Notes under the pieces: generated by a model | The model's database searches: none | Told to the model about the DNA's origin: nothing | What the model saw: only the letters and a program-made list of their open reading frames with translations | Shown: positions 16,148 to 33,617 of the stretch, one piece after another | How the letters are laid out: each line of letters opens with the position of its first letter | Numbering within the stretch: the first letter of the stretch is position 1 | Assembly (NCBI GenBank): GCA_048938105.1 | Contig: JBHLMN010000012.1 | Coordinates: 128,001 to 192,000, forward strand | Length of the DNA: 64,000 nucleotides | Direction: 5' to 3' | Source of the DNA: Promethearchaeota archaeon | GTDB taxonomy: Archaea > Asgardarchaeota > Heimdallarchaeia > Hodarchaeales > Hodarchaeaceae | Translations under genes and position numbers: made by a program

Positions 16148-16789
16148 TCATATCAAAGAGAATTGAATCACTACAAAGAGCATGATACTAAATGTAATTA
16201 CTGAAATCACTGTGTCGAATTTTCCTGTCTTTAGAAATGGGATAAATAATGGAGTTTTGCTTTTATAACTAGTATAATCAGCGCCAAATTTCTTCAATAG
16301 GTACTGATCTTCTATAAGTGCAAGAATAATATAAGCCAGTAGTTGTAAATACCATAGTATTATTGTTTCTTCCGCTGACAGCCAACTCATACCAAAAAAG
16401 AAAGTAATATAAAAATAACTCCACCCTGTCAAGCCAATTGTCAAAAGTAGAAGACCAGTATACTGGGGATGTCTTATAAATCGATAAGGGCCAGAGGTGA
16501 CTAATCCCCTTCTCTTTTTTACGCCGAGATAAACAATTGAATAAATTATCAATACAACGCTTATCATAATCAAAATTTTCCCAAAGAATACCTCATTAAA
16601 ATTGAGAAGGCTGGCATAGCCTTCAATGATACTGCTAGAAAGATTGGGAACCAAGGCACCCAATAACAGAATTACAGGAGCAGCCATGAGTGGTATCCAT
16701 ACCCAGATTCCTGGAAGTTGCTGAACTAAAAGAAATAAATATCCAGCCGTGCCAAAAACAATAGCTTGAGCTCTCTCTAGTTTTTTCAT
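16148..16789 (-). CDS. ICMT/PEMT family membrane methyltransferase
   Basis: GLVTSGPYRFIRHPQYTG, IED..L..KFG..Y..YK.KTP. Confidence 0.85.
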   Translation of the reverse strand: MKKLERAQAIVFGTAGYLFLLVQQLPGIWVWIPLMAAPVILLLGALVPNLSSSIIEGYASLLNFNEVFFGKILIMISVVLIIYSIVYLGVKKRRGLVTSGPYRFIRHPQYTGLLLLTIGLTGWSYFYITFFFGMSWLSAEETIILWYLQLLAYIILALIEDQYLLKKFGADYTSYKSKTPLFIPFLKTGKFDTVISVITFSIMLFVVIQFSLI

Positions 16790-17761: not shown

Positions 17762-18703
17762 TTAGCTTAATATTTCAATTAATTTGACCAAATCCTCTTT
17801 ATTGATGGCAACAACATCTGCTTCAGGAAATATATTGCGGTTGTTTTCTGAAATTCCCTGTCCTCCGATTGCAATACGAATTTGGTTTTTGAAAACATTA
17901 TGTAAATACTCTAAATTTCGTTTAAGAGTACCAAGATATAACGGAAGGGTAATGGAGATAAATATCCAATCAGGTAATTCAGGAAGATCTTTGATATATT
18001 TGATTAAGGATTGGATGGGTAAAGCTCGCCCCAGATTAATAATCTTGTAATTTAAATCCCGAAGAATATATTCTAAGGCAAATAAACTGAGAACATGTCT
18101 TTCACCTTCTACAGGTACTAAAATGATAATTCCTTTTTCCTCTATATTTTCATTTACTGGTATTCTTGCAACGATTAGCTCTTCAACGCGATTAGAAATA
18201 ATGTGTTCTTCCGCAGTTGAAAGATTCGCTTGAGCCCATTGTACACCGACCTCATGCATTAGTGGTGTGATAAAATCAACAATAAAGGGTGTACTATTAG
18301 GAAACATTGATTCTATGTTTACTGAGAACTCCTCAACATCATAATTTGATGATTTCAGATATCTGATCATTTCTTGTATGGAGGCTAATTTTAAAACAGA
18401 GGGTTTTTCTATTCTTCCTTTCTCCTCAGGCTTCTTCTTTTCTTTTAATATCTCATTCTCATGTATATATAGTTCTTTGATTAGATCATCAGTTAAATAT
18501 ACAACAGTATACCGCCCCCGTTTAAGTGGGCGTCGTTCGATTTCGATATAACCTTGTAAATTTAGTTCTTTTATGGCATTAGAAATTGTTGAACGTTTAA
18601 GATCTAAATTGGATGCAAGTTCAGAAACAGGGACTTCCCTTCCGCGATTTTGCCTTAAGTATCGAAAAATACGATCTCTGGCTGGTAATTGGACATTTTC
18701 CAT
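17762..18703 (-). CDS. Cobalamin-binding transcriptional regulator: winged HTH plus CarH/LitR-type four-helix cap and B12 Rossmann domain
   Basis: wHTH VSELASNLDLKRSTISNAIKEL; W-x9-EH (WAQANLSTAEEH); E-x-H (GERHVLS); NLG..LP, ISIT, IGG; adjacent to crtB. Confidence 0.85.
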   Translation of the reverse strand: MENVQLPARDRIFRYLRQNRGREVPVSELASNLDLKRSTISNAIKELNLQGYIEIERRPLKRGRYTVVYLTDDLIKELYIHENEILKEKKKPEEKGRIEKPSVLKLASIQEMIRYLKSSNYDVEEFSVNIESMFPNSTPFIVDFITPLMHEVGVQWAQANLSTAEEHIISNRVEELIVARIPVNENIEEKGIIILVPVEGERHVLSLFALEYILRDLNYKIINLGRALPIQSLIKYIKDLPELPDWIFISITLPLYLGTLKRNLEYLHNVFKNQIRIAIGGQGISENNRNIFPEADVVAINKEDLVKLIEILS

Positions 18704-18716
18704 AAGGCATTGTTAC

Positions 18717-18749
18717 CTTCTTATTGATATTCTTATGATTTCTTCATGA
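18717..18749. promoter_or_regulatory. Three imperfect tandem 11-bp direct repeats just upstream of the CarH-like gene
   Basis: cttcttattga / tattcttatga / tttcttcatga. Confidence 0.35.
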
Positions 18750-18772
18750 CTTACTCTTATTTTATGAACCAG

Positions 18773-19717
18773 CTAAAGTTTACGAAGGTACTCTAAACGT
18801 ACTTTAGTTGCCAAAATAATCTTTCTTAGTTTAGAAACAACTGCCCGTTGATTTAATATTTGATAATCAATTCTTTTTATCTCATTTAGAATTTCCCCAT
18901 AGACTCTTGAGGCCACTTTTACAGTATAAGCTCCTGCAGGTGGTAATTCCTCAATACCAAGATCAGCTATCTTATAAAGAGCTTTCGCTCGCTCTGATTC
19001 GTAACGAATGAGTGATTTGAGGTTCTCATTCACTTTATCACCCCTTAGATCCTCAATCGTAACCTGATAATCATTCCGAGTTTCTTCTGGTAGATATATT
19101 CGCCCCTTGAGGAAATCCTCTTTGATATCTCTTAATATATTGGTTAATTGCATTGCTCTACCTAGATCTGCAGCTCGTGCTAGAGTTCGTTTTTCTGGAT
19201 TTTTGATGAAGATGTGAGTCATCATTAAACCAACAGTACTTGCAACCCGATACATGTATAAGTCAAGTTCTTCTTCTGAATAGTACTCGGTTTTTATAAG
19301 ATCCATTCTCACACCTTCTATAAGCTCATGCATGTAATTAACTGGAATTTGATGTTTACGTAACGTATCTCCAAAGGCATGAAGGATAGGATTTGTAGAG
19401 CTATATCCATTGGCCAATTTTGTTATAGTACTTTTCAATCGATCAAGTTCAAAATTAATCTTATCAATCGTAATCCCCTTAGGGGCTTCATCAACTATAT
19501 CATCACTTAAACGACATATAGCATAGAGAGCAGCAACGCTTTTACGCTGATCTTCAGGTAAAAATCGACTAGCGAAATAGAATGACTTGCTATGCTCTAT
19601 CATCCAGTCTAGACAGATTTGATAGCTTTCTTCAAGTGTTTCATCCATCAAACTATGTTTAGGTGTCGTACTTTTGGGAAGAAGTTCCCAATCAATTGTT
19701 TTGTGAGTTGAATACAT
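18773..19717 (-). CDS. crtB: Phytoene synthase
   Basis: SKSFYFAS, YAICRLSDDIVDE, YRVASTVG, QLTNILRDIKED..GRIYLP. Confidence 0.95.
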   Translation of the reverse strand: MYSTHKTIDWELLPKSTTPKHSLMDETLEESYQICLDWMIEHSKSFYFASRFLPEDQRKSVAALYAICRLSDDIVDEAPKGITIDKINFELDRLKSTITKLANGYSSTNPILHAFGDTLRKHQIPVNYMHELIEGVRMDLIKTEYYSEEELDLYMYRVASTVGLMMTHIFIKNPEKRTLARAADLGRAMQLTNILRDIKEDFLKGRIYLPEETRNDYQVTIEDLRGDKVNENLKSLIRYESERAKALYKIADLGIEELPPAGAYTVKVASRVYGEILNEIKRIDYQILNQRAVVSKLRKIILATKVRLEYLRKL

Positions 19718-19739
19718 TTTCTAATTCACTTATTAATAT

Positions 19740-19841
19740 TTCATGAATTAGTTCAACTTCATGAATAAACATTTAAATATTTTTCGAATGTAGGTAATCA
19801 ATCAAAAAAGTGTCATTTGTCAAGTAGACATTACTTTTTTG
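19740..19841. promoter_or_regulatory. Divergent crtB/crtI promoter region with palindromes
   Basis: TTCATGAA at 19740-19747 and 19758-19765; TTTAAATA at 19772; 9-bp inverted repeat CAAAAAAGT (19803-19811) / ACTTTTTTG (19833-19841). Confidence 0.5.
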
Positions 19842-19852
19842 GATAAATAAAA

Positions 19853-21436
19853 GTGAGAAAAATGAGTAATGGACATAATAAACGTAATATAGCCTTTGAT
19901 AATAAAAACCCTGAAACGTTTCTCGAATCAGTGGTAATTATAGGCTCTGGGATTGGTGGACTGGCGGCGGGAATACGCCTTCAGACAACAGGAAAATTTA
20001 ATGTTACTATTATAGAAAAACTAGACCAAGTTGGTGGTCGGGCCAGAGTCTTTAAAGATCAAGGGTTTACTTTTGATGGAGGTCCTACGGTAATAACTGT
20101 ACCTGACATTTTTAAGGATTTATTTACTTTACCTGGTCGAAAAATGGAGGATTATGTCGAATTAATACCAGTGGAGCCGTTTTATCGAATCCATTTTAAC
20201 GATGGGACATTTTTTGATTATTCTACTCCGGAAAAAAATATACCTCAAATTGAAAAAGTAAATCCTGAAGATGTAGAAGGATATAAACGCATGCTTAAAG
20301 CAGTTCGACCGATCTACGAGAAGGGGTTCAAAGAATTATCATTTAAACCTTTTAACAAGTTTACTTCAATGCTTAAAGTAGCTCCCTCCCTCATCAAGTT
20401 ACAATCATACCGTTCAAATTATAAATTTGTCTCTAAATATATAAAAAATGAGAATCTCCGAATGGTATTTAGTTTTCACCCTTTACTTATTGGGGGGAAT
20501 CCTTTCTCGGTTCCATCAATTTATAGTCTTATTCAATACCTGGAAAAAGAATTTGGAGTTTGGTTTGTGCGTGGTGGTACAAATGCTTTAGTTCAGGCGT
20601 TAGCAAACTTATTTGAGGAGCTTGGGGGTAAAATCATTTTGAATAGTGAGGTTAAAAAAATTGAAGTTAAAGATAATCAAGTAGAGGGCGTTTTAACTGT
20701 TTCGAATGATTTTTATCCAAGTAAAATCGTAATAAGTAATGCTGACCCCGCTTTTACATACACAAAAATGATTGATGCAGAGTGGCGCAGGAAAAACAGT
20801 GATAAGCGTTATAAAAAAGCGAAATATTCTATGGGATTAGTTGTAATTTATTTTGGAACGAAAAGACAATATCCAAATATGAAACATCACACTATTATTT
20901 TGGGTCCCCGGTATAAAGGACTAATAGAAGATATTTTCAAGAAAAAGATTTTAGCAGAAGATTTTTCGAGCTATTTACATCTCCCCACTCGGACTGATCC
21001 AAGTTTAGCTCCTGAAGGACATGAAGCCTTTTATATCCTGATTCCCGTCCCTCATCAAGATTCTGGTATTAATTGGGAAGAAATGGCTGAACCATTTAAA
21101 CAACGAATCTTTGATTTTCTGAATGAAAATTATCTCCCTGAACTAAAAGAGAACTTAGTGACAGAGCGAATTTTTACTCCTCTAGATTTTGAACGAGACT
21201 ATAATAGCTTTAAAGGATCTGGTTTTTCTGTTGAACCAATTTTTACTCAATCAGCGTGGTTCCGTCCACATAACAAATCTGAAGATATTGATGGTCTTTA
21301 TTTAGTGGGTGCTGGAACCCATCCAGGAGCAGGATTGCCTGGAGTTGTCTCCAGTGCAAAAGTAACCACAGATTTGATCATCAATGGGAAAAATGGATTT
21401 TCAAAAAAACCCTCTGGAATAAGTAATGCTAATTAG
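19853..21436 (+). CDS. crtI: Phytoene desaturase (CrtI family); ATG 19862 is an alternative start
   Basis: IIGSGIGGLAAG, FDGGPTVIT, FHPLLIGGNPF, WFRPHN...LYLVGAGTHPGAGLPGV. Confidence 0.95.
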   Translation: MRKMSNGHNKRNIAFDNKNPETFLESVVIIGSGIGGLAAGIRLQTTGKFNVTIIEKLDQVGGRARVFKDQGFTFDGGPTVITVPDIFKDLFTLPGRKMEDYVELIPVEPFYRIHFNDGTFFDYSTPEKNIPQIEKVNPEDVEGYKRMLKAVRPIYEKGFKELSFKPFNKFTSMLKVAPSLIKLQSYRSNYKFVSKYIKNENLRMVFSFHPLLIGGNPFSVPSIYSLIQYLEKEFGVWFVRGGTNALVQALANLFEELGGKIILNSEVKKIEVKDNQVEGVLTVSNDFYPSKIVISNADPAFTYTKMIDAEWRRKNSDKRYKKAKYSMGLVVIYFGTKRQYPNMKHHTIILGPRYKGLIEDIFKKKILAEDFSSYLHLPTRTDPSLAPEGHEAFYILIPVPHQDSGINWEEMAEPFKQRIFDFLNENYLPELKENLVTERIFTPLDFERDYNSFKGSGFSVEPIFTQSAWFRPHNKSEDIDGLYLVGAGTHPGAGLPGVVSSAKVTTDLIINGKNGFSKKPSGISNAN

Positions 21437-22260
21437 TGGAAGAAATTGTAATGTTAACATATTTCATCTTCCTCCTTTTCTTTATTGTTATACCTTTGAT
21501 GGTAATCAGTTTTTTTTATTATAAGAAATATCGTGGAGGGGAAGAATATCAAAAAACGATGATAAAAAAAATCTTAATTGTGTTAGCGATATTAATAATT
21601 GTAGCTATTACTTATACTACTCCATGGGATAATTTTCTCGTCGAAAATGGCATTTGGTATTATGAGACATCGAAAGTTATGGGTATTTTAATTGGTTTTG
21701 TACCCATTGAAGAATATGGCTTTTTCGTATTGCAGACTCTCTTTATTGGATTGCTATTCGGATGGATTCTGCTTCATAGAAAGAAAATCAGTCATAATCA
21801 GAATAATTTTAGAGTTAATTTACGCCTGATTTCAGCGATTGGGCTACTTATTGTTTGGATTGTAGGATTTCTTGCATTTATTAACAGAATAGAAACTTTA
21901 ACTTATCTGAATTTAATCCTTTTATGGGGAATACCTCCAATAATGATTCAACTGATCTATGGCGCTGATATTCTCTGGTTGTACAATCGAGACCTTATCT
22001 CAGTCATCTCTCTCTCAACTATTTACTTAGCTATTGCAGATACTATTGCGATTGCAGATGGAATCTGGACAATTAGTATAAATACATCAACAGGGATTCT
22101 TTTGGCTGGAGTTTTACCTATTGAAGAGTTTGTCTTTTTCTTGGTCACTAATATATTAATTACTTTTGGATTAACCTTAATGATTGATTCTAGGAGTATT
22201 GATAGATTTCATCAATACTTTTCTAGATTAAAAGAACACAAGTGGAGAAATAAGTTATGA
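21436..22260 (+). CDS. crtY: Lycopene cyclase, fused two-domain CrtYc/CrtYd membrane type; start may be ATG 21451
   Basis: Two cyclase repeats: PWDNFLVENGIW...VPIEEYGFF and ADTIAIADGIW...LPIEEFVFF. Confidence 0.9.
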   Translation: MEEIVMLTYFIFLLFFIVIPLMVISFFYYKKYRGGEEYQKTMIKKILIVLAILIIVAITYTTPWDNFLVENGIWYYETSKVMGILIGFVPIEEYGFFVLQTLFIGLLFGWILLHRKKISHNQNNFRVNLRLISAIGLLIVWIVGFLAFINRIETLTYLNLILLWGIPPIMIQLIYGADILWLYNRDLISVISLSTIYLAIADTIAIADGIWTISINTSTGILLAGVLPIEEFVFFLVTNILITFGLTLMIDSRSIDRFHQYFSRLKEHKWRNKL

Positions 22261-22377
22261 CCAGTAGAATTTTTGTACAGGAATTGTATACATGCTTCAA
22301 AAATTTAGAAAACTGCAATATGAAGATATATTGGGAATACCTCCCTTTCTTTAACTCACACAATTTGAGGTAATTTC

Positions 22378-22830
22378 ATGTTAAATAACGTAATAGAATA
22401 TCTTAATGAGTCTGTAATACCTTTGCGGCTTTCTGGTACCACTAAATCAGGCTGGCCATTTGTAATGAGCCTTTGGTATGTTTATTTAAATGAAAAAATT
22501 TACTTAGCAACTATAAAATCAGCTAAAGTCGTTGATTATCTTTCTAATAACCCCAAATGTGCTTTTGAAATTGCCAGTGATACTCCACCTTATTGTGGGA
22601 TTCGAGGACAAGCAATGGCAAAAATTATTGAATCTAAGGGGGATGAAATTCTAAAAATCCTTCTAAATCGTTATCTAGGAGGAGAAAATAGTCCTTTAGC
22701 CCGAAGACTGTTGAATCAACGTATACCAGAGGTTGCGATTGAGCTTACTCCTGTTAAAGTGTATCAATGGGATTATAGTAAGCGAATGATTGACTCGATT
22801 GAATTTTCTTCAGTTAAAAAGTGTCCATAA
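22378..22830 (+). CDS. Pyridoxamine 5'-phosphate oxidase-like flavin-binding protein
   Basis: PLRLS..TKSGWPFVMSLWY, NPKCAFEI..D.PPY.GIRGQ. Confidence 0.8.
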   Translation: MLNNVIEYLNESVIPLRLSGTTKSGWPFVMSLWYVYLNEKIYLATIKSAKVVDYLSNNPKCAFEIASDTPPYCGIRGQAMAKIIESKGDEILKILLNRYLGGENSPLARRLLNQRIPEVAIELTPVKVYQWDYSKRMIDSIEFSSVKKCP

Positions 22831-22867
22831 ATAAGAACGATAAAAAAACCAGTAAAAAGGTGATATT

Positions 22868-23287
22868 ATGTCAGATATCAAATATTCTGCTGGAGTATGC
22901 AATATCGGTGACGCTGAAATAAAACAAAGACGTCGATTAGGATATATAGGCATTGGTCTTACTGTGATAGCAATTATTGTATATTTAGGATTGATTTATT
23001 CTATAAAATTAGATCCATTCTTTGGAGTGATTATTTTCATACCTGCTGAAATGTCAGCTATTGGGTTAATTCAAGCTAGGAACAAATTTTGCGCTGCTTA
23101 TGGATTGATTCACCAACAGAACGTTTCCTCAAGCTTAGGCTTAACTGTGAAAATAGGCAATAAAAATTCCCAGAGAAAGGATAGGAACAAAGCTCTTAAA
23201 ATTATTTTTCAATCCCTAGTAATTGCGATTATCATTACTGTTTTTACAGTTATTGGAGGGATTTTGATAGCTCAAAGTATTATTTAG
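22868..23287 (+). CDS. Small membrane protein with CNIG..E..RR and KFC motifs, function unknown
   Basis: Three hydrophobic helices, two Cys; AGGTGA SD. Confidence 0.7.
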   Translation: MSDIKYSAGVCNIGDAEIKQRRRLGYIGIGLTVIAIIVYLGLIYSIKLDPFFGVIIFIPAEMSAIGLIQARNKFCAAYGLIHQQNVSSSLGLTVKIGNKNSQRKDRNKALKIIFQSLVIAIIITVFTVIGGILIAQSII

Positions 23288-23376
23288 GTTTGAATATAGG
23301 TTGAAAAAAAGCATAAGAGATAAATATGAATCAAATCAATATACTCAATCTTAGGGAGAGGATTTTTCCTACTCCA

Positions 23377-24114
23377 TTAAAAAATTCGTCCTAGTGACGC
23401 GTCTAAGATTTTTCCAGTCATTAGAGGAGTAGTTGCAGCAAATTCTATCATTTCATTCAAATCCTTAGGTAATAATGGGTAATTAAGAAGCTGTTTTGAT
23501 ATTAATTTCGATGATAGAACCTCAATTGTTGTACCATTATCCATAGATTTCTTTTCCAATTCTCTATTATGTCGATCCGTAAAAACATATGTAGGAGAAA
23601 CTCCGTTAATTCGAATTTTGGGAGCCAAAACTCTAGCCATTGTACGAATTAAATAGACTAATCCAGCTTTCGCAACTCCATAAGGCATTTTATCCAATGA
23701 AGGTTCATAAGCAGCAGAACTAACGATATGTACTATAGCTCCGCCTTCTATCATAAGTTCAGCTGCCATTCTTGTTAATAAGAAAGCAGATGTTAGATTC
23801 ACATTTATTACACGATTGAAAAATGAAGCATCCACTTCTAATGGATTTTTTGAAGCCAAGGATCCCCCTATATTATTTATCAGAATGTCTATTGATCCAA
23901 TTTTAGTCTGTACCCATTTCTTTACCTTTCTAATTCCTTCCTCGGTTGTGCAATCAGCTGCAATATTATTAATTCCTGGAAAACGATCATTTATCATATT
24001 TAGACTGGATATGAGAACCTCATTATTCTGATTAGAAAGTTTTCTCATAATTGCCTCTCCAATCCCTCCAACAGCAACACCAGTAACTAGAATTTTCTTA
24101 TTTTCGATGATCAT
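23377..24114 (-). CDS. Classical short-chain dehydrogenase/reductase
   Basis: TGVAVGGIG, LINNIG, SS, YGVAK (YxxxK), IRINGVSP. Confidence 0.9.
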   Translation of the reverse strand: MIIENKKILVTGVAVGGIGEAIMRKLSNQNNEVLISSLNMINDRFPGINNIAADCTTEEGIRKVKKWVQTKIGSIDILINNIGGSLASKNPLEVDASFFNRVINVNLTSAFLLTRMAAELMIEGGAIVHIVSSAAYEPSLDKMPYGVAKAGLVYLIRTMARVLAPKIRINGVSPTYVFTDRHNRELEKKSMDNGTTIEVLSSKLISKQLLNYPLLPKDLNEMIEFAATTPLMTGKILDASLGRIF

Positions 24115-24159
24115 GATTAATTTCCTCAGTTATGTTGTTAATGGTTTAATTTATTACAT

Positions 24160-24648
24160 CTAGTCATCTATTTTCAGAGTTTGAGTTTTAAGTAATTTAT
24201 AATTTTTAGGAAATCCCCAATCTTCAATCTTATTGTAACTTGTTTTTTTTGATCGAAAATGTACCCATATTGTTGTACTATCAAGAAGTGGATTAGCATG
24301 GTAATGCTTTTGATCACCATATCGAAAAGCTTCTAGTACTAGGGGTAATTCCTGACGAAAAATTCTATCACGAAACTTTAAAGGGCCAATTCCCCCACTT
24401 ACTTGACAATAGACATGGAGTGAATATACATTTTCGGTTTTCAACCATTCAGCTAACACTTCATCCCGCATTATCCGTGTTTGCCATCCTTTTAGTTGTT
24501 TTTTGTTAAACTCATGGGCAATGGTGAGAAATAAATCTCCTGTCCGATCTGAATGGGTTAATGTATAGCAACGAGGTACTAGAGGAGAATCAATGGTTGT
24601 TGGGGGTATAAATGTAACATTTAGTTTATTTGGGTTTAAGCGATTCAA
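24160..24648 (-). CDS. STAY-GREEN (SGR, Mg-dechelatase family) homologue
   Basis: PRCYTLTHSDRTGDLFLTI, GWQTRIMRDEVLAEW, LHVYCQV, IFRQELPLVLEAFRYGD, WVHF.S...YNKIE.WG. Confidence 0.92.
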   Translation of the reverse strand: MNRLNPNKLNVTFIPPTTIDSPLVPRCYTLTHSDRTGDLFLTIAHEFNKKQLKGWQTRIMRDEVLAEWLKTENVYSLHVYCQVSGGIGPLKFRDRIFRQELPLVLEAFRYGDQKHYHANPLLDSTTIWVHFRSKKTSYNKIEDWGFPKNYKLLKTQTLKIDD

Positions 24649-24674
24649 GGTAGAAATCCTTCTATTTGAAAGAA

Positions 24675-26177
24675 CTAAGTTGTAGATAAATAATAGGGCT
24701 TAGGAGTAGAGCTTATTTTAGTATATGTAAGACTATCTCCAGGAATATCCCTACAAATTTCCTCTAACAGCTTTTTTGACAGCATGTCGAAAAATGGTTG
24801 GATCATAAACCAATAGGCTATCCCAATAAGCCCTTTTGGGACTATTCGAAAAATCTGATGAAGTTCAATTTTTTTGTGATTAATACGCCTTAAACGATAT
24901 CTTAGGATGGTATAACCAGGTAAGATGAAATCTGTATGTAATGTTAATTCTTTCTTTGGAATTTTATTCTGAATTGAAAGAGGAGTCTTTTTCATCTCTC
25001 CCTTGTCCTTAAAACCTTTGAAAAAACCGTTTAGAAAAGCACCAAATTTCCATAAGTATAAATTGATCTGAAAATTTCTATATTTCTCAATCTGAAGTAA
25101 TTTGTTCCACAAATTCTCAGGATTACTAGTTAAAATAGCCTTACGATGATCTTGGAAGACAAATCCTCCAGACCAGGATGGATCCCCTGGAATGTGCCAT
25201 TCAACGGGTAAATCATAATAGCTAGAATAACTTCCGTACCTAAGATACTGTTGGGGGTTTAATGCTAATCGAATTGCTTGTTTATGGTTTAGTAACTTCT
25301 GTGGAATCAATTCTCGTATCCTAAAATCATGACAAACAACCTCATTCTTCATTCCATCTATTAATGGACGAGCTAAAGATGATTGAATGCCTGTAATCAA
25401 TCTTATCCAATAGGAGCTTAGGCTAGGAGTGAAGAAAGGGATAGGGAGAATTAAACGCTTTGGTAGTGCCATAATTTCCACATAACTCTCCATAAACTGT
25501 TTATAAGTGATAATATCTGAACCACCAATATCAAAGGTCTCACCGATTGTTTCTGGTACATCTAAACAGTCAGTTAGATATTTCAGAACATTTCGAATAG
25601 CTATTGGTTGATTTCTTGTTCTAAGCCACTTGGGTGTAATCATAATTGGCAATCTATTGACTAGATACCTCATCATCTCAAAAGCTGCGCTTCCACTCCC
25701 AATAATAATTGCTGCACGTAACGTTGTAACTGGTACTGAACATGAATTCAGTATTCTGGAAACTTCGATTCGAGACTGTAGATGCTTACTTAATTTTTCT
25801 TTTTCGTCCCCTAATCCCCCAAGATAAATAATTCTTTCAATTGCTGCCTTTTCAGCTGCAATTATTGTGTTTTGGGCTGCAATTCTATCAGATCTAATAA
25901 AATCTTTTATTTTTCCTTCCATAGAATGGATTAAATAGTAAACCGAGGAGACTTCTTCCATTGCGTCTTCTAAGGTTTTAATATCGAAAACATTAAGATT
26001 TACCGTTTTCAAATTCCTATGATGACTCCATAATCTCATATTTAGCTTGTCTTTTGACCTAAACCCCACTCGTACAATATATCCTTTCTTTAAGAGTTTT
26101 GGTACAAGTCTGGAACCTATGTAACCTGTGGCCCCAAGTACAAGAACTTCTTTTTGTTTCAAGGGAAATCTACTCAT
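24675..26177 (-). CDS. Atypical SDR/NAD(P)-binding protein with C-terminal DUF2867-like domain (YbjT-like)
   Basis: GATGYIG, YYLIHSM, IIYLGGLG, SKHLQSR.EV, LRAAIIIGSGS; C-terminal PKGLIG.AYW. Confidence 0.88.
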   Translation of the reverse strand: MSRFPLKQKEVLVLGATGYIGSRLVPKLLKKGYIVRVGFRSKDKLNMRLWSHHRNLKTVNLNVFDIKTLEDAMEEVSSVYYLIHSMEGKIKDFIRSDRIAAQNTIIAAEKAAIERIIYLGGLGDEKEKLSKHLQSRIEVSRILNSCSVPVTTLRAAIIIGSGSAAFEMMRYLVNRLPIMITPKWLRTRNQPIAIRNVLKYLTDCLDVPETIGETFDIGGSDIITYKQFMESYVEIMALPKRLILPIPFFTPSLSSYWIRLITGIQSSLARPLIDGMKNEVVCHDFRIRELIPQKLLNHKQAIRLALNPQQYLRYGSYSSYYDLPVEWHIPGDPSWSGGFVFQDHRKAILTSNPENLWNKLLQIEKYRNFQINLYLWKFGAFLNGFFKGFKDKGEMKKTPLSIQNKIPKKELTLHTDFILPGYTILRYRLRRINHKKIELHQIFRIVPKGLIGIAYWFMIQPFFDMLSKKLLEEICRDIPGDSLTYTKISSTPKPYYLSTT

Positions 26178-26189
26178 TCTAAGAGGACA

Positions 26190-26960
26190 TCAATAATCTT
26201 GACGAGCTTTCCAGAAATCACCATAAAAGAAAAATCCAATCAGTTGAGAAAATACGAATATTATTGATATAACTATTCCTAAATACTGTAATATAAGAAT
26301 TTGATTACTATGGAAGATATACAGAGGGATAAAGTTCAATAAGAACCAAATCCACGAAAGAATTGGAGCAGATATGAACATAAGAGATCTTTTCCATTTT
26401 GAAACAGATAAGAAGGAACTCAAATCATATTTTATTCCAAAAATAGGAAGTTTCGTTATAGGTGTCCAAGCTAGCAAGTTTGATTTACGAAATGTGGATT
26501 TGAAAATAAAATAATTTCTAAAGTTTAATCCTAAAAGAAAACCAAATATGCAATGGATTACGGTATGAGAGAGCATAAAGTTTACAAAACTGATTAGAAA
26601 GAACAAAATAACACTAAACCAAAAATCTACAGAAAAATAAAAGGCTAAAAAATAAAGAATTTCTGAGATGAGAACACCAACTGAGAATAGTAAAGTTCCG
26701 ACTTTAATTGAAAATTTTGGAACGTTCCAACTATCGAAGAAGAATTCATCAATTCTCCCTAAAATATCTATTTCTTCCTCTGTTATTTTTACTTTTCGTG
26801 CATATTTTACAGCAGTTTGATATTTTCTCCAATGACTCTTCCGATTTAATGTTCCTGTTTCATATGAATCCTCTAAATCCTTGATATTCCTACTAAAATT
26901 AGTGTTATCCATTTGAGAACCTTCCCTAGAACTGTAGTTCTTATTAGTTATACTTAACAT
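26190..26960 (-). CDS. Orphan membrane protein with HxxxH motif; start may be ATG 26912
   Basis: Four to five TM segments, SHTVIH, ISAP, terminal YGD; co-oriented directly downstream of the heliorhodopsin. Confidence 0.7.
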   Translation of the reverse strand: MLSITNKNYSSREGSQMDNTNFSRNIKDLEDSYETGTLNRKSHWRKYQTAVKYARKVKITEEEIDILGRIDEFFFDSWNVPKFSIKVGTLLFSVGVLISEILYFLAFYFSVDFWFSVILFFLISFVNFMLSHTVIHCIFGFLLGLNFRNYFIFKSTFRKSNLLAWTPITKLPIFGIKYDLSSFLSVSKWKRSLMFISAPILSWIWFLLNFIPLYIFHSNQILILQYLGIVISIIFVFSQLIGFFFYGDFWKARQDY

Positions 26961-27019
26961 TATAATTCTAGTGATCGAGGTTTGAAAATAAAAAGAGGGG
27001 AAGGATCATAATGACCCAA

Positions 27020-27832
27020 TTAAGCAAATATTAACCCCATAAATACAATCCAAGCTAATGCTGATTTTGCAAAGAGGCTTAATAATTGATAACCTCGTTC
27101 TCCATATAGATAATCTTTCCATGGGCCTATTTTCTTATACTGAAGAAACATATTCAAGGCAAAGCTGTTAAAGAAGACGAAATAAACTACTAAGGCAATA
27201 TAGACAAAAGTAGGAACTTCTCGTCCAACTGTGTTAATACTCAAGAATGTATCAAGGATGACGATCCAGGGCATTATTCCAGCTATCCATCCTAGGATAT
27301 AAGGAGCCCAGCTTGTTTTTTCAGTATATTGGTTATAAGTCTCCATTAACAACCCAAACATGTTCATTAATCCATTAAGCACGAATATCAGAGCAAGAAT
27401 CCAAAATTCTAGTATTCCAAAAGCTAAAGCAATGAATATGATCATCACTGAACTGGAAAAAGCATACTCATACCAACGTACTGGATTCATTTCTTTCTTT
27501 AAATTGGTAACATATTTGTTATATAATGGAAAAGCAATCAGTAAATGAGCAATAGCTGACATTAGAAGAAAACTAGCAAGCAGGATACCTGCAATGTTTT
27601 CAAAAGTGAAAAAAACTTCGGGGATAGGCTCAAGAACTGGACGAGTACCAGTTAATTCTTTTATTCCTAAATACGACCTATAAATGTCGATTTTGAAGTT
27701 TTTTATTTCATCAATTACTAAACTCAGAGCAAATATAACTGTTGCTTGCACTAAGTGCAAGATACCCATGGCTATATTGAATTTCCGGAGATAGGAAAAT
27801 GATATTTTTGACTTTTCAATGTTAGTTGACAT
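27020..27832 (-). CDS. heR: Heliorhodopsin
   Basis: LRKFN..MGILHLVQA, SAIAH, NPVRWYEYAFSSS (counterion Glu), MNMFGLLME, YLYGERGY..LSLFAKSALAW (retinal Lys in SLxAK); AGGAGG SD. Confidence 0.97.
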   Translation of the reverse strand: MSTNIEKSKISFSYLRKFNIAMGILHLVQATVIFALSLVIDEIKNFKIDIYRSYLGIKELTGTRPVLEPIPEVFFTFENIAGILLASFLLMSAIAHLLIAFPLYNKYVTNLKKEMNPVRWYEYAFSSSVMIIFIALAFGILEFWILALIFVLNGLMNMFGLLMETYNQYTEKTSWAPYILGWIAGIMPWIVILDTFLSINTVGREVPTFVYIALVVYFVFFNSFALNMFLQYKKIGPWKDYLYGERGYQLLSLFAKSALAWIVFMGLIFA

Positions 27833-28051
27833 TAAGCAACCTCCTATGGATTTAGACAGAAGAGTCCTTCTTTATATATTCATTATGATAATTAAAACGT
27901 AAATCACCAATAAATCTAGATCTAGAATTAATGACTTGAATCAGGATGAAGTTCTATTACTGAAAAAATAAAGAATCTATTATAATGTGAACCTAAAACT
28001 TGCTGATTGATGAACTAGTACTTCTAAAATCACAAAGAATGGTGAAGGCTG

Positions 28052-28828
28052 ATGTCTCTTACAAAACAAAAACAATTTTTGATTTATGGTAACATCTTGA
28101 GCTTTTTATTAACTATCGTGATGAATTCTTTAGCCAACATCCTTCCTTTGAATGGAAAAACAACTGCAGAACTCAGTGACTCTTTCCCTAACTTATTTGT
28201 CCCCGCTGGGTATGTTTTTAGTATCTGGGGATTGATCTACATTTTATTAGCAATTTTCACGGTTTCCCAAGCCCTTCCCAAGTATAGAGAGGAGGATGTT
28301 ATTGAAAAAATCTCCTATTTCTTTATTATAAGCAATCTGGCTAATTCATCATGGATTGTATTTTGGCACTTTGAAATAATAATCGCATCCTTATTGGTTA
28401 TGTTGATACTCCTTGTATCTTTAATACTAATCTATACCCGATTAGAAATTGGAAAGAAGCCCGTGAGTGAAAAAATTAAGATCACTTCTCATATCCCATT
28501 TAGTGTTTACCTGGGATGGATTACTGTTGCAACTGTTGCAAATGTTACAGCTTTACTTGTATCAATAAACTGGGATGGTTTTGGCATAAGTGAAGTCATC
28601 TGGACTGCAGTTGTAATAAGTGTTGCAACAATAATTGCACTAGTTATCGTATTCACCCGGAAAGACTATGCCTACGTTCTTGTCCCCGTCTGGGCTTTTA
28701 TAGGAATAGCAGTAAAGCAATTAAATACTCAAAACGATGTTGTTATAATTTCTGTTATAGCAGCAGTTATTTTAGTCATAACATTGCTTGTTAGACTTTC
28801 ATTGGATTTAGTTCAGAATCGAAAATGA
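28052..28828 (+). CDS. TspO/MBR-related tryptophan-rich membrane protein
   Basis: NSLANILP.NG.T..ELSD..PNLFVPAGYVFSIWGLIY, N.SW..FWH, PFSVYLGWITVAT. Confidence 0.8.
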   Translation: MSLTKQKQFLIYGNILSFLLTIVMNSLANILPLNGKTTAELSDSFPNLFVPAGYVFSIWGLIYILLAIFTVSQALPKYREEDVIEKISYFFIISNLANSSWIVFWHFEIIIASLLVMLILLVSLILIYTRLEIGKKPVSEKIKITSHIPFSVYLGWITVATVANVTALLVSINWDGFGISEVIWTAVVISVATIIALVIVFTRKDYAYVLVPVWAFIGIAVKQLNTQNDVVIISVIAAVILVITLLVRLSLDLVQNRK

Positions 28829-29709
28829 ATGATAATAATTTTAGATCACTAATTACTTCACTCATAATAATATGCATTGCTGCATGTCTTGCACTCATTG
28901 GTAGCCACAGGGGTATAACTGTTTTTGGTGGAATACCAGTATTTGCACTTGGAGTAGCTATTGCCTTTATAATTCAATGGATTGCGTTTATACCTGCTTA
29001 TATCAAAAGAACAGAGAAATTTTTCGATTTGACTGGCTCTTTGACTTACAGTATTGTGATTATTTTTTCAGTTGTTTTGAGTTCTGAAATCAATATACGA
29101 TCTATTTTACTGATGTTTTTGGTCTTGATCTGGGCGATTCGCCTTGGTATGTTCTTGTTTAGGAGAATACTGAAAGAGGGTGAGGATAAACGCTTCAAGG
29201 AAATCAAAGAATCAGGTTCGCGTTTTCTATTAACTTGGACTCTTCAAGGTTTGTGGGTTAGCTTTACATTAGCAGCTGCATTGGCTGCGATCACAGTAAA
29301 ACAGAGGGTAGAATTTGGCGTCTTTGGTTTAATTGGTCTTCTGGTTTGGATCATAGGCTTTGGATTTGAAGCTGTTGCAGACTATCAGAAGAGTAAATTC
29401 AGATCTATTCCTGAAAACAAAGGAAAATTTATTACTACTGGATTATGGTCGATATCACGACATCCCAATTACTTTGGAGAGATCCTCCTATGGATCGGTA
29501 TTGCAATCATTGCACTTCCAACACTTCAAGGTTGGAGATGGCTAACACTAATTTCTCCTATTTTTGTCACATTATTATTGACCAAGGTTAGTGGTATTCC
29601 ATTACTTGAGAAACATGCAGATGAAAAGTGGGGTGGTCAGGAGGAATATGAGCAATACAAAAGTAAGACTCCAGTATTAATCCCAAGGCCATTCTTCAAA
29701 TCAAATTAA
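28825..29709 (+). CDS. DUF1295 / steroid 5-alpha-reductase-like membrane protein
   Basis: FFDLTGS, WAIRLG, EDKRF, WTLQGLW, ADYQK, GLWSISRHPNYFGE; ATGA overlap with the upstream gene. Confidence 0.9.
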   Translation: MNDNNFRSLITSLIIICIAACLALIGSHRGITVFGGIPVFALGVAIAFIIQWIAFIPAYIKRTEKFFDLTGSLTYSIVIIFSVVLSSEINIRSILLMFLVLIWAIRLGMFLFRRILKEGEDKRFKEIKESGSRFLLTWTLQGLWVSFTLAAALAAITVKQRVEFGVFGLIGLLVWIIGFGFEAVADYQKSKFRSIPENKGKFITTGLWSISRHPNYFGEILLWIGIAIIALPTLQGWRWLTLISPIFVTLLLTKVSGIPLLEKHADEKWGGQEEYEQYKSKTPVLIPRPFFKSN

Positions 29710-31343: not shown

Positions 31344-32114
31344 ATGTATATCGAAAAAGATGAAAATAAAACTCTAGGGGAGGAAATTAGAAGTGAAAAC
31401 TCCATCAATTTAGTAGTGACAACTTTTCTATTAGGTGTGAGCATTTATGTAGTGGCCCAGCTTATCGGAATATTTCTTACTACTGAATCATTTGGTCCAA
31501 TTATCGAAGGAGGAAATGTGTCAAAACTGTTATTAACTCAGTCAATGTTTCTGTTTCTCTCTCTTGTCACTATATTTTTTCTGACTAAAGGAAAATTAAC
31601 TCACTATGGATTAAATAAACCTATCGGAGCAGTAAAATGGGGATATATTATTGGATTAGGATTATTGATTGGTTCAATTGCTACCATCCTCATTATTGTA
31701 ACAGGAGCAAATGGAAATCCTGCTTTAACAGGTCTAGGTATTAGAGAAAAAATAGTCTTACTTTGGTTTTTAGCTAGTATAGCAGAAGAAGTTTTCGTTA
31801 GAGGTTTATTACAGGGGTATCTGAATCCTCTAGAGGGTATGAAAATTAGTATTGGTAAGCAAAATTTCTCATATCCAGTTGTTTTCAGTGCTATATTTTT
31901 TGGTACCATCCATCTACCGCTAGTATTTTTTGGGGCAGACCTTATCACAATTTGTATTATCTTTTCAATGACAATAACTCTGGGTTTCTTTACAGCCTCT
32001 TTACGAGAGAAATATCAAAGTATATTACCTTCAATTGGCATTCATATTACAACAAATATTGGAGGAACAATGCTAGGTCCAATAATATATGCAATCTTGG
32101 TAGGATCAATTTAA
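31344..32114 (+). CDS. CPBP (type II CAAX/Abi) intramembrane protease
   Basis: AEEVFVRG, FGTIH, IGIHITTN. Confidence 0.9.
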   Translation: MYIEKDENKTLGEEIRSENSINLVVTTFLLGVSIYVVAQLIGIFLTTESFGPIIEGGNVSKLLLTQSMFLFLSLVTIFFLTKGKLTHYGLNKPIGAVKWGYIIGLGLLIGSIATILIIVTGANGNPALTGLGIREKIVLLWFLASIAEEVFVRGLLQGYLNPLEGMKISIGKQNFSYPVVFSAIFFGTIHLPLVFFGADLITICIIFSMTITLGFFTASLREKYQSILPSIGIHITTNIGGTMLGPIIYAILVGSI

Positions 32115-32432: not shown

Positions 32433-33617
32433 ATGGAAAATCAAAATAAAGGAAGTAGTTGGTTTATTTTCTCTACACCAGCTATTCTTGCTGCGGGTTA
32501 TCTTTCATTGCAATTTTTAATCGAATTCCTTGTAGCATTGCTGCTTTTTATCGTTCAATTAACCGATGATATTGTGATAAGTAAGTTTATTGTCTTAATT
32601 ATTAGTCAGATGCTTCTTACCGTGATAATTATCTTTGTGATAACCCCTTTCCTGAAAATTAAAGATGTTGAGTTTACTACTGTTAGCTATACTAGTTTTC
32701 TAAAATTTATTGCAGTTTTTTGTCTATTCTGGGCGATTACGATACCTATTACCCTAATTTTTTCAGTTTTTTCCACTAATTTCAGTATAGGGGAAGCAAT
32801 CTATGAAAAAACATTACCACTGTCGATCGGTCATCGTGGAAATCTATTCTCAGTCATCATGTGGTTACTAGCTGGTACTCTAAGCTTTGCCATATTTATG
32901 GAATATTTATTTCGAAGAACATTGATACCATTATTCGAAAAGCGTGGTTTATCTCCTTTTGCTGCAGTTATCACTTCAAGTATTGCTTTTGCTTTAGTTA
33001 GCATACCAAATTATCTCGGAATCCAACTAACAATTCTTACAGAATCCAACTTATTAATTCTATATTTTAGTAGATATGGATTATTAAATTCACTTTTCTG
33101 TTCCTTAAACCTTTTTATGACAACATTTATCCTTGGAATGGCTTGTGGAATTGTATATATCCTAACAAGAAATGTCATATTTTCAATTATGGTACATTGT
33201 CTTGGTATACTTCCCTACTACTTGATAGATTTATTTCATGATAATATTATGTTCGATTTATTGTTAGGTATTTTAATTATTGTGATTAACATTTCAGGCC
33301 TTCTTGTTGCCTTATTCACGAGTCATACTATTTTTAAAGCTTCATCCCAGACTGACTGGATTACTATCCTTAAGAAAAAGTCGGAAGTAAACATCAATCG
33401 CGGAATAACTGGATTCTTTATTACTTTTTGGGGAATAATTATTAATATTGTGATATTCATTGGTTTACTTGCCGAACATGCTCCTATTATAGTTGCTCTA
33501 TTGTTTAATATTATATTTCTTGGATTTTGCACTAAATATTTACGAGAAGATTCAATAGAGGATAAATCACCCACTGATCATAATGAAATGAAAGAATATG
33601 GTGAAATAAGTGAATAG
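32433..33617 (+). CDS. CPBP-family membrane protein with degenerate active site
   Basis: FMEYLFRR (EE reduced to ME), FALVS (His lost), MVH. Confidence 0.7.
   Translation: MENQNKGSSWFIFSTPAILAAGYLSLQFLIEFLVALLLFIVQLTDDIVISKFIVLIISQMLLTVIIIFVITPFLKIKDVEFTTVSYTSFLKFIAVFCLFWAITIPITLIFSVFSTNFSIGEAIYEKTLPLSIGHRGNLFSVIMWLLAGTLSFAIFMEYLFRRTLIPLFEKRGLSPFAAVITSSIAFALVSIPNYLGIQLTILTESNLLILYFSRYGLLNSLFCSLNLFMTTFILGMACGIVYILTRNVIFSIMVHCLGILPYYLIDLFHDNIMFDLLLGILIIVINISGLLVALFTSHTIFKASSQTDWITILKKKSEVNINRGITGFFITFWGIIINIVIFIGLLAEHAPIIVALLFNIIFLGFCTKYLREDSIEDKSPTDHNEMKEYGEISE

Follow-up and report, generated by a model that had tools for sequence, protein, structure and literature searches.

What does a heliorhodopsin (HeR) do beside a B12-type transcription regulator, a carotenoid pathway and a homologue of the Mg-dechelatase Staygreen (SGR), and do all of these genes answer to a single switch? 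A 12-kb run of 13 genes in an Asgard archaeon raises this question. The run lies at 17762-29709 of the window, i.e., the whole 64,000-nucleotide stretch analysed here (G000:C63:128001-192000), and the host genome measures 5.85 Mb with 99% completeness and 7% contamination. All 13 contiguous open reading frames (ORFs) that the initial annotation had listed were found in place and on the strands given, and their order, divergent units and short gaps were as it described. Its view that they form one photoprotection regulon with two photoreceptors fared less well. We favor, with a probability of roughly 0.6, a composite light-stress (photoprotection) island of separately mobile modules, in which a B12 switch for crt genes (module A) is joined to an HeR/SGR pigment module (module B) and a TspO/DUF1295 pigment module (module C). 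The features of the island are as follows, with bit scores from hidden Markov model (HMM) searches.

17762-18703, minus strand: B12 (adenosylcobalamin, AdoCbl)-photoreceptor-type transcription regulator; MarR/ArsR-like winged helix, four-helix bundle and Rossmann B12 domain; crtB always adjacent in orthologues
18743-18768, no strand: degenerate operator pair TTCATGAC-N10-TTTATGAA upstream of the regulator gene; kept in the three closest relatives
18773-19717, minus strand: crtB, phytoene synthase (SQS_PSY, 248 bits)
19740-19765, no strand: candidate operator TTCATGAA-N10-TTCATGAA in the crtB/crtI divergent promoter region, 5 bp upstream of the TTTAAATA TATA box
19853-21436, plus strand: crtI, phytoene desaturase family (TIGR02734, crtI_fam, 604 bits)
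21436-22260, plus strand: crtY, fused CrtYc/Yd-type lycopene cyclase (two TIGR03462, CarR_dom, matches, 111 bits); start overlaps the crtI stop
22378-22830, plus strand: PNPOx-like/FDOR-like split-barrel protein, a weak call (20.8 bits); after crtY or beside the regulator in congeners
22868-23287, plus strand: CNIG protein, a small membrane protein with an N-terminal C-N-I-G motif and no family; recurs in HeR and crt loci of the genus
23377-24114, minus strand: classical short-chain dehydrogenase/reductase (SDR) oxidoreductase (SDR HMM, 110 bits); last gene of the HeR-led run
24160-24648, minus strand: SGR, Mg-dechelatase homologue (PF12638, 166 bits); H32, D34 and D62 intact
24675-26177, minus strand: NDUFA9-like atypical SDR fused to DUF2867 (NAD_binding_10 plus weak DUF2867); recurrent SGR neighbor
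26190-26960, minus strand: M50/site-2-protease-like (DUF3267-like) membrane protein, or HxxxH protein, with HTVIH instead of HExxH; kept only in congeners G072 and G067
27020-27832, minus strand: HeR (PF18761, 286 bits), the sole rhodopsin of the genome
28052-28828, plus strand: divergent TspO/MBR-like protein with extra C-terminal helices (PF03073, 27.9 bits; model fold)
28825-29709, plus strand: DUF1295 membrane protein of the steroid-5-alpha-reductase/ICMT clan (237 bits); start overlaps the TspO-like stop; recurrent SGR and HeR neighbor

Module A is the best defined of the three. Orthologues of the regulator were found in 13 of 20 congeners and in two genomes of another family, and the arrangement in which the regulator and crtB diverge from crtI and crtY was kept in all 14 loci fetched, which span two Asgard families. 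This tight and conserved linkage bears out the proposed tie between the B12 regulator and the crt genes. Alignment of the crtB/crtI intergenic regions revealed paired TTCATGAA palindromes, 10-11 bp apart, that stand out in otherwise diverged sequence and are followed after ~5 bp by the TTTAAATA archaeal TATA box. Allowing no more than one mismatch overall, the pair occurs in 13 of 13 orthologous intergenic regions, and the host genome contains 354 single exact boxes and two exact pairs, compared with ~0.1 pairs expected by chance. The degenerate pair between crtB and the regulator start carries identical mismatches in the three closest relatives, and its conservation upstream of the regulator gene suggests autoregulation. 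As predicted in silico, the B12 regulon comprises crtB, crtI-crtY and the regulator itself. An oligo-T run follows the crtY stop; read-through from crtY might or might not reach the genes for PNPOx and the CNIG protein. The second exact pair in the genome (C4:94786-94813, i.e., L142:6787-6814) has a gap of 12 bp and overlaps the end of a 366-aa ORF of unknown identity; a gene for a 939-aa Lhr-type DEAD-box helicase lies ~230 bp downstream. The regulator may have a second target here, a repair helicase, or the pair may be a chance occurrence; we did not count it into the regulon.

Protein comparisons are consistent with a B12-binding regulator of unusual build. Residues 7-90 match HTH_11, MarR_2, HTH_27, ArsR-type and Lrs14-type winged helices, and HMM searches found no MerR-type DNA-binding domain in the protein. 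The B12-binding HMM match (25.7 bits) is under the Pfam cutoff of 32.1; phmmer comparison with solved structures aligned residues 141-257 to the cobalamin modules of photocobilins and CarH. The W-x9-EH motif of the four-helix bundle, which touches the upper adenosyl ligand (PMC9304148), is present (WAQANLSTAEEH aligns to WQANRWSVAQEH of 8J2W), as is the cobalamin motif (EGERHVLS ... SIT ... GG), with Ser at the usual Gly/Pro position of D/E-x-H-x2-G/P. In congeners G065, G067, G068 and G075 (L116-L120, L124-L127), the regulator ORF is 386-396 aa long and the winged helix matches twice in tandem.

We propose that module A switches carotenoid synthesis in response to light. The regulator would bind the TTCATGAA pair abutting the TATA box between crtB and crtI, as well as the weaker pair that precedes the regulator gene. 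In the dark, the AdoCbl-type regulator would repress the crt genes and its own gene; in the light, the Co-C bond would break and the regulator would be released from DNA, so that CrtB, CrtI and CrtY could make beta-carotene from geranylgeranyl diphosphate already produced for lipids. CrtB, CrtI and CrtYcd alike match family-level HMMs; equivalog-level CrtB models score below their cutoffs, and the context points to phytoene as the product. HemB and HemC were not found in the host genome (i.e., there is no tetrapyrrole synthesis), and a CobA/BtuR adenosyltransferase is encoded (203 bits). B12 must therefore be salvaged by the cell and can then be adenosylated by CobA/BtuR.

Comparison with related genomes separated module A from the rest of the island. 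Congener G072, the nearest relative over the right half (75-94% identity), has the HeR unit on contig C2 and the regulator-crt unit on C18, which indicates that the 12-kb island arose by local fusion. Most congeners likewise lack linkage between the two halves, and crt genes or the regulator were found beside HeR in 0 of 20 Asgard HeR/SGR loci. These results demonstrate that the island consists of modules joined locally in the host genome.

Module B is the five-gene HeR-led run (HeR, the M50-like membrane protein, the DUF2867-NAD protein, SGR and the SDR), and module C the TspO-like and DUF1295 genes. The key residues of HeR are conserved, namely the retinal-binding Lys in transmembrane helix (TM) 7, the counterion Glu in TM3 and both His, and its SLFAK and RWYEY segments align to the Thermoplasmatales protein TaHeR. 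The window SGR matches the solved homologue 7Y5Y with an E-value of 1e-45, and H32, D34 and D62 are invariant; D34 and D62, with H32, are the catalytic residues of Staygreen (PMC8531759). The TspO-like protein scores just over its HMM cutoff of 24, and phmmer against solved TSPO structures gave no match. An AlphaFold model built with 11 homologues (pLDDT 88) convincingly matched only TSPO chains, with probabilities of 0.98-0.99 and TM-scores by target of ~0.7 over ~160 residues. Foldseek E-values for this model are weak (0.6-0.9), and the call uses probability and TM-score by target; as modeled, the protein is a divergent TspO core plus extra C-terminal helices.

HMM searches or fold comparisons upheld nearly all of the labels first given to the island's genes. 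The exceptions are the HxxxH protein, which is M50-like, the CNIG protein, for which family searches yielded no family, and PNPOx (PF01243), whose match is weak against a cutoff of 28.1 bits and whose closest solved protein is Rv2991 (E = 1.5e-4). We considered the HxxxH protein as a divergent Blh beta-carotene dioxygenase and rejected this identity, as it has no Pfam match even at an E-value of 10 and its Atlas model fits M50/DUF3267-type proteins. Its gene directly follows that of HeR, is retained in G072 and lies beside the crt unit in G067. HTVIH has no catalytic Glu, and the protein may be a pseudo-protease partner of HeR.

We next consider how far the pairing of SGR with rhodopsins extends beyond the window. 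Among 399 Asgard genomes, SGR is encoded in 107, HeR in 131 and both in 80. In ~30 of these 80 genomes, no more than 10 kb of one contig separates the two genes, whereas for two single-copy genes ~0.4 genomes would be expected by chance. The linked cases fall in four genera of three families (7/11 genomes in g1, one in g17, 8/35 in g53 and 14/19 in g54), and the pairs are variously adjacent and co-directional, divergent, or one to three genes apart. Many unlinked cases are fragmented assemblies; in the closed genomes G187 and G367 the genes are truly distant. Among named genomes, a scan detected SGR in members of Anaerolineae, Dehalococcoidia, Bathyarchaeia, Thorarchaeota, Nitrososphaeria and Actinomycetes. 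HeR directly adjoins SGR in nine Anaerolineae loci, one Dehalococcoidales locus and one Thermoproteota single-cell genome, and lies ~10 kb or less from it in two Actinomycetes. One Anaerolineae locus (L078) has the order crtI-crtB-crtY-..-HeR-SGR. In a tree of SGR proteins, the HeR-linked members spread over three or more deep clades, which points to a pairing that is ancient or has formed repeatedly; SGR is patchily distributed in the tree and shows signs of having been transferred between Chloroflexota and archaea.

The association also reaches another rhodopsin type. Family f12 has SGR and no HeR. In all five of its genomes that carry SGR and a type-1 rhodopsin on one contig, the two genes share a strand and are 1.2-1.6 kb apart. 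The order there is crtD-like / crtB-crtI / photolyase / SGR-AhpC-small ORF-rhodopsin-..-DUF2867. In four of the f12 loci (L143-L146, from G093, G099, G103 and G105; e.g., L145:9237-11580), the run of type-1 rhodopsin, small ORF, AhpC/TSA peroxiredoxin and SGR is co-directional and convergent with photolyase.

An unbiased clustering of every ORF located up to 5 kb from SGR showed which other families recur. Counted in loci, the neighbors were HeR (23), an MFS transporter (14), photolyase (13), DUF2867 (10), crtI (8), DUF1295 (7), a SAM methyltransferase (7), AhpC/TSA (7), TspO-like (6), a second SDR type (6), a tocopherol-cyclase-like protein (5), DUF1722 (4) and DegV (4). In more distant contexts we also saw a Rieske/VanA_C oxygenase, a PucC-like MFS transporter and an alpha/beta hydrolase. 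Genes often intervene between SGR and the rhodopsin. The suggestion that these genes form a recurrent, non-random light-related set was therefore borne out, as subsets adjoin each other, photolyase and peroxiredoxin across many lineages. The gene set of the island is a real recurrent association, and its common denominator is light damage. Two further SGR remnants were seen. A decayed second copy in the host (C39:223443-223589, L003) is a C-terminal fragment with two in-frame TAG stops, and in G067 an SGR fragment immediately follows the B12 regulator and PNPOx (L136:11057-11233).

What would modules B and C act on? TspO proteins bind porphyrins. For SGR homologues of non-phototrophs, Mg-dechelation of chlorophylls is the only documented activity (PMC8531759, PMC11006732). 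The host makes no tetrapyrroles, so any tetrapyrrole substrate of SGR or TspO must be exogenous. For this reason, we read modules B and C, which have promoters of their own that lack the paired operator, as probably acting on hydrophobic photosensitizers from outside (i.e., chlorophyll-type Mg-tetrapyrroles and porphyrins of sediment or mat detritus). The samples that hold island DNA are labeled as sediment and mangrove habitats, with which an exogenous pigment supply plausibly fits; no RNA run was listed as containing the locus. The handling of photosensitizing tetrapyrroles put forward in the initial annotation is thus plausible for exogenous pigments and does not hold for the cell's own, as HemB and HemC are absent. 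HeR would be either merely co-expressed with the pigment enzymes or a second, independent light input. Dark repression by the regulator, the substrates of SGR and TspO, and any signaling from HeR to the enzymes are steps that we infer.

Several points weigh against this favored reading. The TTCATGAA pair is assigned to the B12 regulator from its position and conservation, and a lone box with one mismatch in the HeR/TspO intergenic region, at 28007, leaves room for weak control of HeR and TspO by the same regulator. Dechelation by SGR homologues may be promiscuous according to its authors' own group, a term that the title of Obata et al. 2019 uses (as cited in PMC8531759), which makes the pigment-detoxification step a guess. 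The linkage of SGR to both rhodopsin types is also compatible with a chromophore-related role. Finally, searches of the 99%-complete host genome found no photolyase/cryptochrome FAD domain (PF03441), tocopherol-cyclase-like gene or SGR-linked MFS transporter. The host thus lacks the photolyase of several congeners, which is an odd fit with strong light exposure. In L128, L130, L141 and L009, congeners carry a cyclobutane pyrimidine dimer photolyase inside the island.

The strongest alternative, which we consider possible although unlikely, is that module B serves the rhodopsin chromophore, with SGR and the oxidoreductases making, trimming or delivering retinal without Blh/Brp or RPE65-type oxygenases, from beta-carotene of module A or from imported carotenoids. 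It would explain why SGR is linked to HeR and, in f12, to a type-1 rhodopsin, as only retinal and light are common to both. HeR is intact in the host although neither Blh (PF15461) nor an RPE65-type carotenoid oxygenase was found in its genome, and no Brp/Blh beta-carotene dioxygenase reaches the Pfam cutoff in any of the 399 Asgard genomes, more than 130 of which encode rhodopsins. Indeed, the retinal pathway of HeR-bearing organisms is an acknowledged gap in the HeR literature. In L078, where all named genes run in one direction, SGR takes the slot that blh holds in proteorhodopsin clusters, and a rhodopsin is encoded in ~82% of SGR-positive compared with ~19% of SGR-negative Asgard genomes (counts that ignore phylogeny). 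However, the island proteins include no recognizable oxygenase, and the SGR homologue that has been solved and assayed binds and demetalates chlorophylls (PMC8531759). Most SGR loci of Chloroflexota and Bathyarchaeia have no rhodopsin within 10 kb, and photolyase and peroxiredoxin, which are unrelated to retinal, are frequent SGR neighbors as well. We tentatively extend this thought to prokaryotic SGR in general, which might be a rhodopsin-associated protein that provides either a Blh-independent chromophore supply or a pigment clearance switched on directly by the rhodopsin in light.

A single regulon, in which the B12 photoreceptor controls all 13 genes and HeR is a second receptor of the same response, appears improbable. 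The genes are contiguous in the host with confirmed junctions (see below), and congeners carry PNPOx, CNIG, photolyase, TspO-like, DUF1295, DUF2867 and an SGR fragment directly beside the regulator-crt unit. Nevertheless, we rejected the idea that the promoters of HeR, TspO or PNPOx carry an operator in common with the crt genes, as the paired operator is confined to the crtB/crtI and regulator promoters and was not found at the HeR/TspO promoter, before PNPOx or elsewhere in the island. It was likewise absent from ~150 kb of same-genus HeR/SGR loci, and ~1 Mb of unrelated SGR loci contained it once, weakly. Upstream of HeR in ten congeneric loci, we found no conserved motif beyond TATA-like boxes and ribosome-binding sites. 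Together with the unlinked halves in G072 and most congeners, these results argue against the one-regulon claim and for the composite island.

An accessory-gene hot spot, where lipid/isoprenoid enzymes, a sensory rhodopsin and a regulator sit side by side without functional connection, would account for the very fluid gene order among congeners, the retention of the HxxxH protein, SDR and CNIG protein within the genus only and the patchy SGR phylogeny with its signs of transfer, but is very doubtful given that the same families re-associate in varied orders in Asgard classes, Chloroflexota, Bathyarchaeia and Actinomycetes and that HeR and SGR are linked far above chance.

The composite island does not appear to be a product of assembly. 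The nearest homologues and the syntenic contigs carry the titles Candidatus Hodarchaeota, Hodarchaeum mangrovi, Heimdallarchaeota or Promethearchaeota, and going by these the host is a Hodarchaeales-type Asgard archaeon. GC composition is uniform over the whole window, and genes flanking the island (unk566, ArsR-like, unk280 and CAAX protease) border the crt unit in G072 at 72-90% identity. We checked the junctions against Logan contigs of two sediment samples from a single study; one of the samples may be the source of the assembly itself. With 0-3 differences, such contigs span the crtY-PNPOx-CNIG junction and the HeR/TspO intergenic region in both samples and the CNIG-SDR-SGR junction in one. 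The contig is therefore archaeal and non-chimeric, which removes one ground on which the initial annotation could have been refuted. One Logan contig (run X1) joins 22395 to 24607, omitting PNPOx, the CNIG protein, the SDR and most of SGR; this joint has just 24 letters on one side, too short to interpret, and could be a strain variant or an artefact. Outside the island lie an ICMT/PEMT-like methyltransferase gene (16148-16789, minus strand) and two genes for Rce1-like CAAX/CPBP proteases (31344-32114 and 32433-33617, both plus strand). These flanking genes resemble the eukaryotic prenyl-protein processing set, and their families are widespread in prokaryotes.

The rhodopsin-SGR pair in Asgard archaea and Chloroflexota, extending to type-1 rhodopsin, links two open functions, that of HeR and that of SGR in non-phototrophs. 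If true, a rhodopsin-tied role of SGR would give a function to both proteins in Asgard archaea, Chloroflexota and other non-phototrophs. The B12 regulator would place a CarH-type light switch among archaea, and within the order nearest to eukaryotes; in our view, its sequence suggests that these sediment organisms sense and prepare for light, and it would offer a compact green-light switch with a new DNA-binding module. Splitting the island into modules corrects an attractive but unsupported picture of two photoreceptors in one regulon.

How does the island compare with known systems? HeR and schizorhodopsin were already known in Asgard archaea (PMC12137139). Published HeR neighborhoods (Chazan et al., bioRxiv 10.1101/2021.02.16.431466; Bulzu et al., PMC8612252) likewise feature oxidative- and light-stress families, and list PNPOx, AhpC/TSA, photolyase, tocopherol cyclase, cobalamin-binding proteins, MFS, DUF1295 and carotenoid genes. 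The part of the neighbor table of Chazan et al. (Dataset S3) that we consulted includes DUF2867 and TspO; Staygreen is mentioned neither in that part nor in the texts of the two papers. In our literature search, no paper named heliorhodopsin alongside Staygreen, stay-green or dechelatase. The initial annotation knew of no description of this combination in archaea; HeR-neighbor families such as PNPOx, cobalamin-binding proteins, DUF1295, DUF2867 and TspO had been published before. In contrast to the published surveys, SGR is here the commonest HeR partner in Asgard archaea and is also paired with type-1 rhodopsin.

The individual proteins have close solved counterparts. AbSGR-h of Anaerolineae (PDB 7Y5Y; PMC8531759, PMC11006732) shares H32, D34 and D62 and the structural residues R26, Y28 and T29 with the window SGR and also comes from a non-phototroph; unlike AbSGR-h, the window SGR is archaeal and its putative dechelatase role is assigned by homology. 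The window HeR matches TaHeR (PDB 6IS6) with an E-value of 3e-61 and shares its retinal Lys, counterion Glu and both His, but has ~15 extra residues in the first extracellular loop region and a different gene context. The best solved matches to the B12 module of the regulator are the photocobilins SasPcob and AbDPcob (8J2W, 8J2X, 8J2Y; PMC10979010; E = 4e-7), which have the same motifs. Whereas photocobilins carry a bilin-binding globin domain and enzyme outputs, the window regulator lacks the globin and has DNA binding as its output.

CarH-like modules in other architectures had been predicted (PMC10979010), and our literature search found no description of an archaeal winged-helix CarH-like regulator with an operator. 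The likeness to CarH/LitR of Thermus thermophilus, Myxococcus xanthus and Bacillus megaterium (PDB 5C8A/5C8D) extends from the cobalamin domain with W-x9-EH and E-x-H and the location beside crt genes to a candidate operator that overlaps the promoter, likely autoregulation and the logic of light-derepressed carotenogenesis. Unlike these regulators, the Asgard protein, known from sequence, has a MarR/ArsR-type rather than a MerR-type DNA-binding domain and Ser in ExHxx(G/P), and its candidate operator consists of two 8-bp palindromes beside an archaeal TATA box. Together, these comparisons suggest that the regulator works by CarH logic without strict family membership, with a winged helix in place of the MerR domain.

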